Assembly (NCBI GenBank): GCA_045657125.1
Contig: JAZOSM010000084.1
Location: 1 to 44,702 of the forward strand
Length of the DNA stretch: 44,702 nucleotides
Reading direction: 5' to 3'
DNA from: Eubacteriales bacterium
GTDB taxonomy: Bacteria > Bacillota > Clostridia > Oscillospirales > SIG627
In this document: positions 9,248-19,944 of the stretch, in pieces
Layout of the letters: every line of letters starts with the position of its first letter
Position numbering within the stretch: the first letter of the stretch is position 1
Position numbers and translations under genes: made by a program
Notes under the pieces: generated by a model
Database searches by the model: none
The model's input: the letters and a program-made list of their open reading frames with translations, nothing else
What the model was told of the DNA's origin: nothing

Positions 9248-10042
9248 ATGATAATCAGAAGCGCAAAGAATACAGATAAAAGTCAAATTCTCGCTTTGTG
9301 GCAGGATTGTTTTCATGATCCACAAGAATATATTGAACAGTATCTTTCAAAGCGTTTTGATCCTAAATACTGTGTAATTTTAGAAGATAAAAGTGAAATT
9401 GTTGGGATGGTTCATCTATTGCCGTGCAAAATTTCGCCGGACACGAACGCTTTTTATTGGTATGCGGCGGGAATAAAAAGTACAAGAAGAAATGAAGGTT
9501 TATTTCGTAAATTCTCAAGTTTTTTGATTGAGAAGATCAATCAAGCGGGTTTTAAAAGTGTTTGCGTTCCTGCATCGGGTCTTGAAAATTTTTATATGTC
9601 AATCGGCTTTCGATATAAGCTTACCGCAACAGATAAAACTTTCATTAAAAATATTACAGAATCCCAAACAATTAGAAATTCTTCTTGGAGTTCTGCAAAA
9701 GTAGAAGATTTTCTCTGTAAGGGGAATAGCGGAGATATCATTTGGGATACCAATGCTATAGATTACGCAATATATGAAAACGATCGTTGCGAAGGTAAAG
9801 CTTACTCTGTAATAATCGACAACAAAAAGCATTCTTTATTTGCGATAAAAAAAGATGACGGATTTTTAATCGATTACCATTTTTTATCCGAAAAAGATTT
9901 TTTGCAAATCAAAGACGATCTTTTTAATCTTCTGGCGTGTGATCGTTTGATCTTCAGAGACATTGGTACGGAAAAGATTATTGCTTTAACAGACTCTGAT
10001 TTGATAAAATCTGATTCAAAGATTTCCATGACCTTGGCATAG
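9248..10042 (+). CDS. GNAT-like acetyltransferase family protein
   Basis: AGGAG RBS. N-terminal half resembles a GNAT fold (IVGMVHLLPC..., AAGIKSTRRNEGLFRKF). Call is weak. Confidence 0.5.
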   Translation: MIIRSAKNTDKSQILALWQDCFHDPQEYIEQYLSKRFDPKYCVILEDKSEIVGMVHLLPCKISPDTNAFYWYAAGIKSTRRNEGLFRKFSSFLIEKINQAGFKSVCVPASGLENFYMSIGFRYKLTATDKTFIKNITESQTIRNSSWSSAKVEDFLCKGNSGDIIWDTNAIDYAIYENDRCEGKAYSVIIDNKKHSLFAIKKDDGFLIDYHFLSEKDFLQIKDDLFNLLACDRLIFRDIGTEKIIALTDSDLIKSDSKISMTLA

Positions 10043-10064
10043 GGAGGCTGGAATAAAATTGACC

Positions 10065-10080
10065 CAACTATACAAAATGC
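10065..10080 (+). repeat. left direct repeat / attL core (CAACTATACAAAATGC)
   Basis: Identical 16-mer at 12840-12855. Confidence 0.85.
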
Positions 10081-10115
10081 CCGTTTTGTTTGACTCGGTA
10101 GGCACGGCAAGCGCG

Positions 10116-10124
10116 TTGATATAT
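10116..10124 (+). repeat. TTGATATAT copy 1 (GTTGATA, nick-site-like)
   Basis: AT island at the left edge of the GC-rich block. Identical 9-mer at 10705-10713. Confidence 0.6.
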
Positions 10125-10704
10125 TGAGTAAGCGAGGGTCTGATGGGGGCTCGCGGGTATTTGAAAGGGTGTAGTATGGAGGCGCGCTCCTTCCCCTTGG
10201 GGAAGGCGGGGGCAGGGGGAAACCTTACCCGCGAAGCGGTGTAACTTTTAAAGCGGGTCTGGTACTGTAGTGGCGAGCTACGGCGCAGACGAGGGCGGGC
10301 GAGCACGCGCAGCGGCGCAGAGCAGGGCACGGCACGTGCCCTAGAGACCCCCGAGTATGCAAAGCTGTGGCCGCCACGATATAGCCGGACAGGGGCACAA
10401 AGGCGGGGTCCCCCGAGGGGCGCCCCGAAGCGAAGCGGAGCGAATAGGCGAGTGGACGAGCCTCCTGAGCGGAGCGAAGCGCGGGGGGACCCCGACGGAT
10501 GGGACTACTCCCCCGTTAAGCCTACGGCTACGGAGCCAACGGCTAGGGTAGCCGTAGGCTATAGCTTCCCGCAGGGAAGCCAATAGGCTGCCGCGCAAGT
10601 GGTAGCCTACAAGAAGCGAAGCGGGCGAAGCCTGCCGCCGCAGGCGGGGGCGCAGCAGCGCGGAGCGGTACATCTCCGCGGCAAGATCTCGGCTTGCCTT
10701 TTAC
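10125..10704 (+). other. GC-rich hairpin-dense non-coding module (candidate single-strand origin, or structured ssDNA/RNA)
   Basis: Five GCGAAGC copies (10231, 10430, 10474, 10616, 10625). Perfect hairpins at 10189-10206, 10324-10342, 10520-10559, 10564-10580, 10630-10645, 10659-10680 and 10680-10698. Only Arg/Pro-rich junk ORFs. Confidence 0.6.
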
Positions 10705-10720
10705 TTGATATATAACCACA
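10701..10720 (+). other. candidate double-strand origin with CTTG/ATA nick motif
   Basis: TTACTTGATATATAACCACA contains CTTGATA, the nick core shared by the phiX174 ori (CAACTTGATATTAATAAC) and pC194-family plasmids. It follows a hairpin and lies ~40 nt upstream of rep. Confidence 0.5.
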
Positions 10721-10751
10721 TTATTCTGTCAAAATCTGCCCAAAATCAATT

Positions 10752-11663
10752 TTGGACGAAATCAATCACAGCGCAAAAAACATTGGAAGCACGAACGGAA
10801 TTTCGCTTCCTGCAGCGCCCGTTTTCGGGCACAAAGCATCATCCGAGGTACTTTATAACTCTTGCACAAAATTCTATCCGGATGGGGCTGGGGGATTCTA
10901 TCCGGTAAAAAGGGTTACCTTTGATCGTTTGATTTACAATCCCCGCAAAATGGAACTTCATCGGGACGAAACCTTTGACGAGGTTGTTGTTTCTACCGAC
11001 CCCTTTGGAGATGATACGAAACTTCGTAATCGTTCCGAGGTTTTCAACACCTTTTGGCGGAAATCTTTCAACCGTGCACGGCAGCAATGCTATGACTATC
11101 TCATGTGCAATTCCGACCTTGACACTTTCGTAACTTTCACTTTTGACCCGAAGATGATCGACCGATGTTCTTACGAGTCTATCGTTACCTCTCTTTCGAT
11201 CTGGCTTTCAAACCGTGTCCGCAGGAACGGTTTGAAATATATTCTTGTTCCTGAAAGGCATAAGGATGGGGCTATTCATTTTCACGGGATTACAAATAGG
11301 GAGGGCTTGAAGCTCGTTTCTTCGGGATATTGGAGGGTTGGCAAGTACACTCTTGCATGGGATCAAATCGCGTCTTCGAAAAAAAAGCTTGCACAGGAGA
11401 TATACAACGTGAAGGACATGCCCCTTGGCTTCTCGACTGCTCTGATCGTCGACGGGGAAGACGCCCAGGTTAAAATTTCCAAGTATATCTGGAAGTATAT
11501 GACAAAGCAGGGCGGGCAGAAAGTGGGCGGCAGATTCTATCTTCACGGCGGAGACCTCGCCCAACCTTTGCTTATTTACTCCAACGAGCTTTTCGAGGAT
11601 GACGAGGGAACCCTCGTCACGTACGGTCAGACGGCTTGCAAAATTTTGAACCTCAACAGTTGA
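10752..11663 (+). CDS. rolling-circle replication initiator, HUH superfamily, two-tyrosine type (start uncertain)
   Basis: Motif I FVTFTF, motif II IHFHGI (HUH), motif III YIWKYMTK (YxxxY as in phiX174 gpA and microvirus VP4). TTG is the only canonical start and there is no clear RBS. Confidence 0.72.
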   Translation: MDEINHSAKNIGSTNGISLPAAPVFGHKASSEVLYNSCTKFYPDGAGGFYPVKRVTFDRLIYNPRKMELHRDETFDEVVVSTDPFGDDTKLRNRSEVFNTFWRKSFNRARQQCYDYLMCNSDLDTFVTFTFDPKMIDRCSYESIVTSLSIWLSNRVRRNGLKYILVPERHKDGAIHFHGITNREGLKLVSSGYWRVGKYTLAWDQIASSKKKLAQEIYNVKDMPLGFSTALIVDGEDAQVKISKYIWKYMTKQGGQKVGGRFYLHGGDLAQPLLIYSNELFEDDEGTLVTYGQTACKILNLNS

Positions 11664-11684
11664 CTTTTTTAGGAATGTAAACTG

Positions 11685-12299
11685 ATGAAAAGTGACTATC
11701 TAAAGCCGTCGACCTACGAACACTTGTACCGGGTAATGCAGCGGGACAACGTACTGGCTATCAGGGTCTCTTTGGAGACGGGTCTTCGCATTGATGACGT
11801 GCTGCGGCTGGAGTGGAAGAACTTCACAAAAGGCAATCAATTTACCTATTTTGCCAAGAAAACGGGGAAAAAAGGTGTGAAAAAGTTGTCAAAACTGCTG
11901 AAAAACGAGCTTTTCTCAAGAAACGTGCACGGTAGCAAGTATGTCTTCCCCGGGAGAAAGCGGGGATCACATCGGACACGACAAGCCGTCTGGAAGGACA
12001 TCAAGAAGGCGGCTGATCTGATGGGGGTAGAGGTGAACGCTTCGCCGCACTCTGCCCGAAAAACTTACGCCGTAGAGTTGCGAAAAACCGCTGGTTTGCC
12101 AGCGGTTCAACGAGAGTTGCAGCACAACTCAATGTCTACCACAATGCTTTACGCCTTTGCCGATCTGGCACGTGCGGGCAAGCGGACACCGACCCCATCC
12201 AGTGACGATCTGATAGAGCTTGCCGATTTGATCGCAAAGAGGGTAGTCGAGCTTCTCCTTCCGGAGCTCGCCAAAGCAAAAGAAAAAAACCTAGGTTGA
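11685..12299 (+). CDS. tyrosine recombinase/integrase, catalytic domain only (204 aa)
   Basis: ETGLRIDDVLRL (Arg I), PHSARKTYA (HxxR), LQHNSMSTTMLYA (His...Tyr). Confidence 0.85.
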   Translation: MKSDYLKPSTYEHLYRVMQRDNVLAIRVSLETGLRIDDVLRLEWKNFTKGNQFTYFAKKTGKKGVKKLSKLLKNELFSRNVHGSKYVFPGRKRGSHRTRQAVWKDIKKAADLMGVEVNASPHSARKTYAVELRKTAGLPAVQRELQHNSMSTTMLYAFADLARAGKRTPTPSSDDLIELADLIAKRVVELLLPELAKAKEKNLG

Positions 12300-12316
12300 C
12301 AACCTAGGTTTTTTTT
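12283..12316 (+). terminator. terminator after the integrase gene
   Basis: 10-bp stem AACCTAGGTT / AACCTAGGTT with loop GAC, A-run before and T8 after. Overlaps the stop codon. Confidence 0.7.
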
Positions 12317-12839
12317 GGTACACTACCCATTGCCGGGGTGGCAATGTGGACGTATGGGGTAGTGTTTGACGTGTAGCACGTCGGCGCTCTTATACTGTAC
12401 CACGTTTGTTTCGTTTTGTCAATACCTTTTGCAGAAACTGTCCCTTTTATCGGACACGTACTGCGCACCCATGGCGGGCGCAAGGCGGCAAGGGCACCCT
12501 TCTCACAAAGTACCTCTTGCCCTTGCCGAATAAGCTCGACCGTCGATCTCGGGGTGCTGATGGAAGCGGGACAAGCACCAGCCACGGCACAAGACTATAA
12601 TTCGCACAAGCGGGTGAACCGCAAAGCGAGGAAAGGAGTAGGCAGAGACAGAAGCGCGCAGCCGTGGAAGTCCGTGGCTTTAATCCTGCCGAACCATACA
12701 AAACGTCCATTTTGTAGCCGAGAGAATTTCTCTGACCCAATCAAAGACAAACCAACGGTCAGAGAAATTATCTCGTGCTCTAGTTGTACGGGGCGACGAA
12801 AGGGGAAACAAGCGTAGCGCCCCTTTTGTTCGGCCTAGT

Positions 12840-12871
12840 CAACTATACAAAATGCAAATTTTGTATAGTTG
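12840..12871 (+). repeat. right direct repeat plus a lox/dif-like palindromic core (attR)
   Basis: CAACTATACAAAAT-GCAA-ATTTTGTATAGTTG has 14-bp perfect inverted arms. Its first 16 nt equal the left repeat. Confidence 0.8.
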
Positions 12872-12977
12872 GGGGCATAGAGTTTGAAATATACGGAGGT
12901 TAACGTCAATATTTTCCTTATATTTCGGTTTTGTCTATGATCTATTTGAACCGCTTAAACCTGTCTTTCTTTCCAGA

Positions 12978-13070: not shown

Positions 13071-13382
13071 CTATTTTAACATTGAAAGAATTTCGCTTGG
13101 TTCCAATAGTTCTGTGCTTCTTTTATAAATTTTTTGATTTTTTACAGATATGTATTCAGGAACGTTTTTAACAGAAAATGCTGCGGTGATATCAGGTTCT
13201 GCATCAATGTCAATTAAATACATATCAAATGGTTTTGCAATAAATGAAAATACGTCGTTCATTGCATTGAGACCTAAAATTGAAGACGGATCTTCTTTTC
13301 TGTAAAAGAACAATATCAAGTCATTTTCTCCACGAATTACCTGATCGAAATGTGCCCTACACAAATGTTTTAATTCTTCCAT
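13071..13382 (-). CDS. thioredoxin-fold protein lacking the CxxC active site
   Basis: Trx-like C-terminal pattern (AAFSVKNVPEYISVKN). ATG at 13382 has GGAGG 8 nt upstream. Confidence 0.6.
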   Translation of the reverse strand: MEELKHLCRAHFDQVIRGENDLILFFYRKEDPSSILGLNAMNDVFSFIAKPFDMYLIDIDAEPDITAAFSVKNVPEYISVKNQKIYKRSTELLEPSEILSMLK

Positions 13383-13409
13383 TCGTTTTAGCCTCCAATT
13401 ATACAAAAT

Positions 13410-19574: not shown

Positions 19575-19944
19575 ACTTATGACTAGGCTTGTAAGCCGGG
19601 TTCTGTAATGCATATCTGCACCGGCGATCATCTATCTGGGACAGAAATCTCTTTCTGCCTCTAGCCACCTATAAAACTGCCTGGCTAGCATTGACCTTGC
19701 GGTCTGTTTTGTATGCGGTGTTGCTTCGGATAGGGTTTACAGGGCCTCTATGTTACCATAAAGGTCGGTGAGCTCTTACCTCGCCTTTTCACCCTTACCG
19801 GTTACCCGGCGGTATCTCTCTGTTGCACTTTCCCTAAAGTCACCTTCGGCGGACGTTATCCGTTATCCTTGCCATGTGAAGCCCGGACTTTCCTCACTTT
19901 GGTTCTTTCGAAATCAAAGCGTAATCGCCCCACCTAGTCATATT
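19575..19944 (-). ncRNA. rnpB: RNase P RNA
   Basis: On the - strand: P4 strands GAGGAAAGTCCGGGCTTC (19878-19897 region) and ACAGAACCCGGCTTA (near 19590-19605). P1 pairs TATGACTAGG with CCTAGTCATA. A consensus promoter lies just upstream. Confidence 0.85.

Follow-up and report, generated by a model that had tools for sequence, protein, structure and literature searches.

Positions 10113-10720 of contig JAZOSM010000084.1 (GenBank assembly GCA_045657125.1, Eubacteriales bacterium) raise a question about replication: what is the role of a GC-rich segment that lies directly upstream of a gene for a rolling-circle initiator protein (Rep) and is bounded by two copies of a sequence resembling a nick site? 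The contig of 44,702 nt, called the window below, was analysed at its full length. An initial annotation had suggested that the two copies are Rep recognition sites in direct orientation, for initiation and termination, and that Rep might release the 580-nt hairpin module between them as a mini-circle of single-stranded DNA (ssDNA). The region is non-coding and comprises the origin of a rolling-circle element of 2.79 kb which has genes for Rep and for a tyrosine recombinase. The evidence leans modestly towards a reading with three components: a nick site, a helix which closes the GC-rich block against this site, and an array of ssDNA mini-hairpins in the block which would serve as a single-strand origin (sso).

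A conserved, probable nick site upstream of rep

The right-hand motif, CTTGATA, had been described as lying within ACTTGATATATAAC, just 3' of a hairpin and about 40 nt before the Rep open reading frame (ORF). The coordinates are exact: the motif occupies 10704-10710 within ACTTGATATATAAC (10703-10716), the hairpin GGCAAG/CTTGCC (10680-10698) lies directly 5' of it and 41 nt separate it from the ORF start at 10752. Taken alone CTTGATA is unremarkable, with 10 occurrences in the window versus 5.6 expected, and the site is significant because of its conservation. With the Rep protein as the only query, loci of the family were gathered from genomes, metagenomes and viral contigs, and TACTTGATA was counted on the rep strand between -450 and +150 of the inferred rep start. 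In 105 of 139 non-redundant loci it occupies the homologous position, even where Rep identity falls to 30% (13 of 16 loci at 50% identity or more, 29 of 33 at 40-50% and 63 of 90 below 40%), the chance expectation being about 0.002 per locus. In 13 close relatives the 37-nt segment CTTTTACTTGATATATAACCACAnTATTCyGTCAAAA is nearly invariant, and the DNA just 5' of it is partly unalignable. Two integrated copies in metagenome-assembled genomes, L001 and L003, show a one-base difference in the nick core.

The near-invariance of the motif and its flanks, the family-wide core and the HUH and two-tyrosine motifs of Rep thus uphold the assignment of the right-hand motif, and on these comparisons ACTTGATATATAAC is very probably the Rep nick site, that is, the core of the double-strand origin (dso). 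By analogy with phiX174 and pC194, Rep would cleave at CTTG^ATA, between G10707 and A10708.

The immediate context of the core varies between subfamilies. A local hairpin around the nick core is absent from the subfamily of the window, and some other subfamilies have CCCTATA-CTTGA-TATAGGG. In the Saccharibacteria and IMG-VR loci L053, L057-L059 and L166-L168, distant members of the family found in Candidatus Nanosynbacter genomes and in viral contigs of 4-7 kb, GGGCTACTTGATAACCC lies upstream of rep and forms a local hairpin whose loop contains the nick core. Among still other carriers of distant Reps, the annotated inoviruses and a 1.4-kb Staphylococcus plasmid have no TACTTGATA upstream of rep on the rep strand; the only copy found, in bajarodino virus 76, is on the opposite strand and about 2 kb beyond the end of rep.

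The Rep protein

Judged by its profile and its HUH and YxxKY motifs, Rep is an HUH initiator of the two-tyrosine PF23343 type. Its only Pfam match is PF23343 (REP_ORF2-G2P; 41.2 bits versus a cut-off of 27.8, E 2.1e-10), a domain present in all 120 Rep homologues listed. Motif 1 is FVTFTF (T128/T130), the HUH motif is H176-F-H178 and the tyrosine pair lies in KYIWKYMTK. Across 17 homologues, with identities as low as 34%, the residues T128, T130, H176, H178, Y245, K248, Y249 and K252 do not vary. A search of solved structures with Rep gave no real match. Membership of the pC194 replicon family was considered and ruled out: there is no hit of Rep_1 (the pC194 type) to Rep, PF23343 is its sole Pfam hit and the active site is YxxKY.

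Rep homologues (n = 564) are mostly located on contigs of 2.4-3.1 kb, almost all of them unnamed. The loci gathered come from hosts as diverse as Oscillospiraceae, Flavonifractor and Saccharibacteria. Relatives with an annotation include faecal inoviruses (bajarodino and Dulem viruses), at about 30-36% identity. L313 (NZ_MH785237.1, S. aureus pAvY-B1, 1435 bp) and about 30 similar records of 1.4-kb staphylococcal plasmids encode, as their single protein, a distant homologue labelled hypothetical protein, with 35-37% identity to Rep over the catalytic half. From this similarity, these plasmids are probably rolling-circle replicons of the same initiator family.

A strand-specific hairpin array in the GC-rich block

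The block had been described as about 70% GC and as bounded exactly by two AT islands. Its position between the islands stands, and its GC content is corrected to 66-67%, the + strand having 39% G, 28% C, 20% A and 13% T; in the chromosome around it the GC content is 40-41%. A coding function was rejected, as indels in the block are almost all of 1-2 nt (13 runs between the window and L175, none of them a multiple of three) and all three minus-strand frames are open. For these same reasons the ORFs of 130-190 aa that public gene calls place on the minus strand inside the block in L177-L180, L308 and L309 are artefacts of composition.

The block is structured, with covarying stems. In a consensus fold of 12 sequences with 124 pairs, 85% of cells are paired (79% Watson-Crick and 6.4% G·T) versus 45-50% in controls whose partners were slid by 1-3 columns, and two-sided, compensatory changes are seen at 43 pairs versus 18-25 in these controls. 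Wobble-type cells amount to 2.1% when these helices are taken from the minus strand, versus 6.4% on the + strand. With DNA parameters the + strand folds at -143 kcal/mol (z score -2.2) and the - strand at -126 kcal/mol (z -1.5), an advantage of 17 kcal/mol for the + strand; with RNA parameters the + strand reaches -298.5 kcal/mol (z -4.3).

The loops of these hairpins bear on the question of whether the folded molecule is DNA or RNA. C-GNA-G triloops on stems of 4 bp or more were counted, as were GNRA tetraloops. The block of the window contains five C-GNA-G hairpins versus 0.28 expected, a number that none of 500 dinucleotide-preserving shuffles reaches; there are none in the remaining 2.1 kb of the element and six in 41.8 kb of host DNA. 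The 13 related blocks together have 49 versus 3 expected. The upstream blocks of other subfamilies cannot be aligned with that of the window and are likewise GC-rich (mean 0.63 versus 0.53 in rep). Over the 600 nt before the nick site in 79 such loci, the nick strand carries 108 C-GNA-G hairpins versus 18.8 expected, whereas the mirror type, with GNA loops on the other strand, is at its expectation (9 versus 8.9); 49 of the 79 loci have the nick-strand type and four the mirror type. GNRA loops are not enriched in these loci (21 versus 36 expected).

Mini-hairpins of the GCGNAGC/GCGNNAGC type are extraordinarily stable as DNA, their RNA versions being much weaker (PMC13037366, a review); the melting temperature of r(GCGAAAGC), for example, is 39 C (PMC13037366). 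They are found at the complementary-strand origins of the ssDNA phages G4, St-1 and alpha3 and in ssiA of RSF1010, and mini-hairpin DNA binds the single-stranded DNA-binding protein (SSB) poorly (PMC13037366). Since the RNA versions are much less stable, a family-wide enrichment of C-GNA-G and not of GNRA constitutes a DNA signature. Moreover, the strand carrying the nick motif is the displaced strand, and the block, from its place directly 5' of the nick, would be uncovered last. The strand-specific excess of C-GNA-G and the position on the displaced strand together favour action as ssDNA. An sso is active only on the displaced strand and in one orientation (PMC5703833), and its function rests on structure more than on sequence (PMC4595007). 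The block is non-coding, shows extensive intrastrand pairing and has features specific to the displaced, nicked strand; as far as can be judged from its sequence, it most likely acts as ssDNA, as a single-strand (lagging-strand) origin.

One hairpin of the block also occurs elsewhere. The most conserved one, CCTTCCCC-TT-GGGGAAGG, which precedes a G-tract (GGCGGGGGCAGGGGG), does not vary in 11 of 12 relatives; in L309 a compensatory C-G pair is seen. As an exact 18-mer (CCTTCCCCTTGGGGAAGG) it is present in more than 120 stretches of unrelated genomes (L182-L307) from Bacteroidaceae, Clostridia, Dehalococcoidia, Sphingomonadales and Hyphomicrobiales, always in the same orientation, followed by TTGGGATGGGGT or by TGGC-(GNA-capped hairpin)-GACGGATGAGGT and sometimes in tandem arrays. 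In L261, the one locus examined closely, it is intergenic. These loci encode no Rep or recombinase homologue and match no Rfam family. The 18-mer with its G-tract is an unexplained widespread repeat, and it is not used as evidence here.

The left AT island and its complementarity to the nick region

The 9-mer TTGATATAT was correctly reported at both edges of the block: its two copies (10116-10124 and 10705-10713) are both on the + strand, they are the only two in the window and the left one reads GTTGATA. Two copies also arise in 8 of 100 shuffles, so the direct repeat alone is not significant. It is confined to the window and L175 (TTGATAT); other relatives have GTTTATATT, GAATATCAAG, GAAAATCAAG, TATTGAG or GGTTATATAG at this place, and the motif is absent or inverted in 10 of 12. 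The island reads GTTTATATTGGG in L081, GTTGATATTGAG in L175, GAATATCAAG in L082 and L177 (in a longer reading, GAATATCAAGG in L082), GTATATCAAGG in L309, GAAAATCAAGT in L179 and L180, TATTGAGT in L181, GGTTATATAGC in L308 and GTTTATCAAGTAT in L002.

The conserved property of the left island is its complementarity to the nick region, not the direct repeat. In the window 5'-ATATATTGAGTAAG-3' pairs with 5'-CTTTTACTTGATATAT-3' over 14 positions, three of which are G·T wobbles. All departures from perfect complementarity in the window, L081, L175 and L181 are compatible with G·T wobbles on the + strand, and L181 has a compensating flank in which both sides have changed (GTAAAGAG with CTCTTTAC). Every 24-nt segment of each circle was compared with the 21-nt nick region in 10 elements (about 2650 segments per circle). 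With DNA parameters the left island ranks first in seven of the 10, and with RNA parameters in five, the window included. RNAalifold independently pairs the island with the nick region. The identity of the two 9-mers is explained by their ATATAT core, which is palindromic and so its own complement. The closing helix is claimed only for the subfamily of the window and a few others.

Two other functions of the island have to be weighed at this point. If the two copies of TTGATATAT were direct initiation and termination sites, the 580-nt module could be excised as an ssDNA mini-circle, and the identical 9-mer in the same orientation at both block edges and nowhere else in the window is what would be expected; indeed, rolling-circle Reps terminate at a second copy of their site. 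However, the left copy is not conserved, lacks the TAC which precedes TTGATA family-wide and has none of the invariant 3' flank AACCACAnTATTCyGTCA, and the shuffles show how readily such a pair arises. Homologous elements (L081, L082, L179 and L181) have no such motif there, an outcome which the initial annotation had itself named as a refutation; no contig consisting of the block only was met and a second direct TACTTGATA occurs in only two of about 125 loci, in unrelated contexts. Second direct motifs bounding whole elements were also considered and, with these two loci only, are unconvincing. The second direct site and the mini-circle proposed at the outset thus find no support among the relatives, and this explanation has very little probability left. 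Hardly more probable is an inverted functional nick site on the minus strand, for strand switching or two-sided replication of the block. The minus strand of the island is still nick-core-like in about half of the relatives (L002 TACTTGATAAA, L309 TCCTTGATATA, L177 TTCTTGATATT, L179 TTACTTGATTTT), but the inverted copy lacks the invariant 3' flank that marks the true site, and the minus-strand core is destroyed in the window, L081, L175 and L181 (ACTCAATAT, ACCCAATAT) by transitions that keep pairing on the + strand through G·T wobbles. This decay of the minus strand with preservation of + strand pairing argues for selection on the pairing.

The integrated element and its circular relatives

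The region belongs to an integrated element of 2.79 kb (about 10065-12853), in which attL is followed by the GC-rich block, the nick site, the genes for Rep and the tyrosine recombinase, a second non-coding region and attR (Table 1). The two non-coding regions together make up about 40% of the element. The window itself is bacterial chromosomal DNA, as shown by its RNase P RNA match; apart from noise, this is the only match of the window and the element to Rfam 15, whether the gathering threshold or a limit of E 10 is applied, and the block matches none of its families, including ROOL, GOLLD and HEARO.

Table 1. Coordinates of the features of the element and its surroundings in the window.
Feature	Position	Strand	Description
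Host GNAT acetyltransferase gene	9248-10042		left of the element
attL, left junction	10063-10089	+	core CAACTATACAAAATGC in common with attR, then element-side arm CCGTTTTGT
Left AT island, GTTGATATATTGAGTAAG	10115-10132	+	5' strand of the long-range helix with the nick region 10698-10713, with G·T wobbles
GC-rich block	10133-10697	+	565 nt, 67% GC, purine-rich, non-coding array of covarying stem-loops with C-GNA-G and GNRA caps; proposed single-strand origin or ssDNA fold
Most conserved hairpin of the block	10190-10207	+	CCTTCCCC-TT-GGGGAAGG, then G-tract
C-GNA-G hairpin	10229-10239		CCGC-GAA-GCGG
C-GNA-G hairpin	10548-10562		
C-GNA-G hairpin	10564-10580		GCTTCCC-GCA-GGGAAGC
C-GNA-G hairpin	10621-10635		
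C-GNA-G hairpin	10635-10647		
Small terminator-like hairpin	10680-10698	+	GGCAAG-atctcgg-CTTGCC, then TTTT; in most relatives, absent from L082 and L177
dso core, CTTTTACTTGATATATAACCACATTATTCTGTCAAAA	10698-10734	+	37 nt, near-invariant in close relatives; predicted cleavage CTTG^ATA
Rep, rolling-circle initiator	10752-11663	+	303 aa; HUH and two-tyrosine motifs
Tyrosine recombinase	11685-12299	+	short, 204 aa, integrase of the element; Pfam PF00589, E 9.5e-20
Bidirectional terminator after the recombinase gene	12283-12315	.	perfect 16-bp palindrome (I7) between A and T runs
Convergent sigma70-like promoters	12296-12422	.	+ 12296-12324, - 12422-12394, around a covarying stem; candidate countertranscript pair
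Second conserved non-coding region	12316-12837	+	about 520 nt, 53% GC, apparently structured
attR	12838-12873	+	GTCAACTATACAAAATGC, then host-side arm
Host thioredoxin-like gene	13071-13406		right of the element
RNase P RNA, bacterial class A	19576-19940	-	270.8 bits (Rfam)

The 16-mer CAACTATACAAAATGC is present at 10065 and 12840, its right-hand copy forming one half of the palindrome described below, and the count of the att pattern is above that in every shuffle. attL is covered by repeat family D1 and inverted repeats I1-I3, and attR by inverted repeat I8. The cores of attR and attL rebuild a perfect palindromic attB, CAACTATACAAAAT-gcaa-ATTTTGTATAGTTG, of 14+4+14 nt, located between convergent host genes. 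In four gut metagenomes with close relatives of the host, contigs span both flanks and not 10108-12720, and one of these contigs links 10044 directly to 12840. The empty site in related strains and the att repeats indicate that the window holds an integrated copy. The close relatives are circles of 2716-2811 bp, as revealed by terminal k-mer overlaps in contigs, in the order nick site, Rep, recombinase, terminator, second non-coding region, att, AT island, GC-rich block and again nick site; their attP is CAAyTATACAAAA-N6-7-TTTTGTGTA. A recombinase gene, a common core at both junctions, an empty site and circular attP forms are thus all found, as in site-specific integrative elements, and from the junctions the double-stranded form would integrate through attP x attB. 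A homologue of the recombinase adjoins Rep in 119 of 181 loci.

The second non-coding region contains a third att-like half-site (12691-12715) and, just before attR, a hairpin with a T-run (about 12790-12830). The convergent promoters have extended -10 boxes, and the -35 box of the + promoter lies inside the loop of the terminator at 12283-12315. This arrangement is kept in L081, L082 and L177, with compensatory changes in the stem, and by its layout resembles the countertranscript (copy-control) pair of plasmids, for which it is a candidate.

In sequencing run X5, the 144-nt bin with the att palindrome has a word depth of about 200, and its neighbours have single-digit depths, so the att palindrome, or something similar, is repeated many times in the X5 metagenome. 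No public sequencing run was found to contain the element, metatranscriptome X7 contains no sequence over the region, and the relative L083 is known from DNA contigs only. A literature search returned no description of an element family combining Rep and recombinase.

A proposed single-strand origin closed by its own nick region

At about even or slightly better odds, the block is a large array of DNA mini-hairpins which resembles an sso and is closed by a helix with the nick region. In the window, site-specific recombination has placed the element in an intergenic palindrome of a gut Clostridia-like chromosome. The proposed replication cycle is as follows. Rep would cut the + strand at CTTG^ATA (10707/10708), a host polymerase would extend the 3' end and the displaced + strand would be closed into a circle again where the nick site is regenerated. 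Within this single-stranded circle, the left island would pair with the nick region and close the block into one domain, placing the regenerated nick site in a duplex in which it may be masked. The C-GNA-G stem-loops, very stable as DNA, would exclude SSB, and the host primase or RNA polymerase would start the complementary strand at the block.

Several observations weigh against this proposal. Its 565 nt make the block two to four times as long as the sso classes on record (about 160 nt for ssoA), and no conserved TAGCG[TA], the CS-6 motif of ssoA, is found in it; the block is thus not a member of the ssoA type and represents at most a new type of sso. HUH origins normally expose their nick site, and its burial by pairing would be unusual. 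Nor is the long-range pairing family-wide, since only 38 of 64 loci have the best partner of the nick region upstream and most best partners are matches of the GC flank, and with DNA parameters the helix of the window itself is only 54th of 2686. Other features would also suit a structured RNA: the 13 related blocks contain 27 GNRA tetraloops versus 6.5 expected, purine-rich stretches (GAGGGCGGGCGAG, GGAGAGCGCGGGAGCG, AAGAGACCCCCGAC) are conserved in the block, the hairpin and T-run at 10680-10702 resemble an intrinsic terminator and, in the circle, a conserved sigma70-like promoter (12296-12324) points towards the block.

An RNA is therefore the alternative to be weighed most carefully: the block may be transcribed, either as a stand-alone large non-coding RNA or as a long leader of the rep mRNA ending in an attenuator at 10680-10702. 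Its fold with RNA parameters and the covarying stems, with more G·U-type cells on the + than on the - strand, are consistent with this, as are the GNRA loops enriched in the subfamily of the window, the unpaired state of the purine-rich segments, the terminator-like end of the block and a promoter that faces it and is paired with an antisense promoter. However, the loop type enriched family-wide is C-GNA-G, not GNRA. No promoter was found between att and the block, the hairpin and T-run before att would stop transcripts from the 12296 promoter, and integration at att splits the block from that promoter. Neither ROOL, GOLLD nor any other Rfam family matches. Moreover, the blocks of other subfamilies are unalignable yet have the same character, which fits a structural role as ssDNA better. 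A transcribed RNA thus seems rather unlikely, at perhaps one chance in a few. Less probable again is that the block is an ssDNA signal for packaging or morphogenesis, by which an element devoid of capsid genes would travel inside virions made by a filamentous helper phage. The annotated Rep relatives are inoviruses, the succession of structured intergenic region, plus origin and Rep gene recalls the layout of Ff, whose packaging hairpin sits in the intergenic region, and the element encodes no structural protein. Against it, the viral-fraction contigs contain no close Rep relative (only homologues of at most 36% identity, on contigs of 4-7.6 kb), no helper was identified and the countertranscript-like promoter pair suggests plasmid-style maintenance. 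A packaging role could, however, coexist with a role as sso.

Significance and relation to known systems

The nick site itself is ordinary, of the phiX/pC194-like dso type upstream of rep, and it is its context that is worth retaining. The circles encoding Rep and a recombinase form a large unnamed family of tiny two-gene elements endowed with both rolling-circle replication and integration. It is conceivable, if on the doubtful side of even, that they represent an undescribed integrative rolling-circle family of gut Clostridia, derived from inovirus-type replicons, whose largest conserved feature would be a new and unusually long kind of sso, a mini-hairpin array of about 600 nt on the displaced strand which, in the subfamily of the window, hides its own nick site until the complementary strand is made. 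The closing helix suggests a way for an ssDNA circle to avoid being cut again by its own Rep. Single-strand origins are notoriously hard to recognise from sequence, and the strand-specific excess of C-GNA-G holds across subfamilies that cannot be aligned; if confirmed, it would provide natural, large-scale evidence for mini-hairpin DNA as a mark of complementary-strand initiation. The spurious ORFs called in GC-rich blocks also point to a useful annotation rule, namely nick motif, then Rep, then recombinase.

The nick core of the element, ACTTGATAT(n)ATAAC, resembles that of phiX174, CAACTTG^ATATTAATAAC, and Rep likewise combines an HUH motif with two tyrosines, Y245 and Y249, in the Y245-x-x-K-Y249 arrangement, which is that of the phiX174 gene A protein. 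Rep belongs, however, to PF23343 (inovirus G2P / plectrovirus ORF2 type) and not to the family of the A protein, and the element has no capsid genes and integrates by its own recombinase. With the dso of the pC194/pUB110 family it shares a CTTGATA core upstream of rep on the rep strand. A dso placed upstream of rep is usual (PMC5703833). The Reps of the pC194 family use one tyrosine and glutamate (Tyr214, Glu210 and Glu142 in pC194 RepA; PMC5703833), whereas that of the element has two tyrosines.

Like ssoA, ssoU, ssoT, ssoW, ssoL and sso1 of ICEBs1, the block is non-coding and strand-specific, folds on the displaced strand and adjoins the dso (PMC4595007, PMC5703833). It differs from them in its length (about 565 versus about 160-300 nt), in the absence of CS-6, in its many C-GNA-G mini-hairpins and in its closure by pairing with the nick site, and it has no sequence similarity to anything annotated. 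The origins of G4, St-1 and alpha3 and ssiA of RSF1010 offer a parallel for the hairpins, since SSB-resistant ssDNA hairpins of the GCGNAGC/CCGAAGG type occur where the primer is made (PMC13037366); there, one or a few are found in about 100-140 nt, whereas here there are four to five or more in a domain of 565 nt.

In the filamentous phages of the Ff group (M13/f1), too, some 500 nt of non-coding sequence with several hairpins directly precede the plus-strand nick site and a gene II-type Rep, and the Rep family is common to the element and inoviruses. There is no sequence similarity, the nick sequence is a different one and the element has no coat or assembly genes, so that no packaging role is evident. 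Finally, CTXphi, RS1, TLC and integrative plasmids are likewise small rolling-circle replicons that also integrate at a palindromic, dif-like site. The element described here, with only two genes in 2.8 kb, carries a short tyrosine recombinase of its own in place of the host XerCD.

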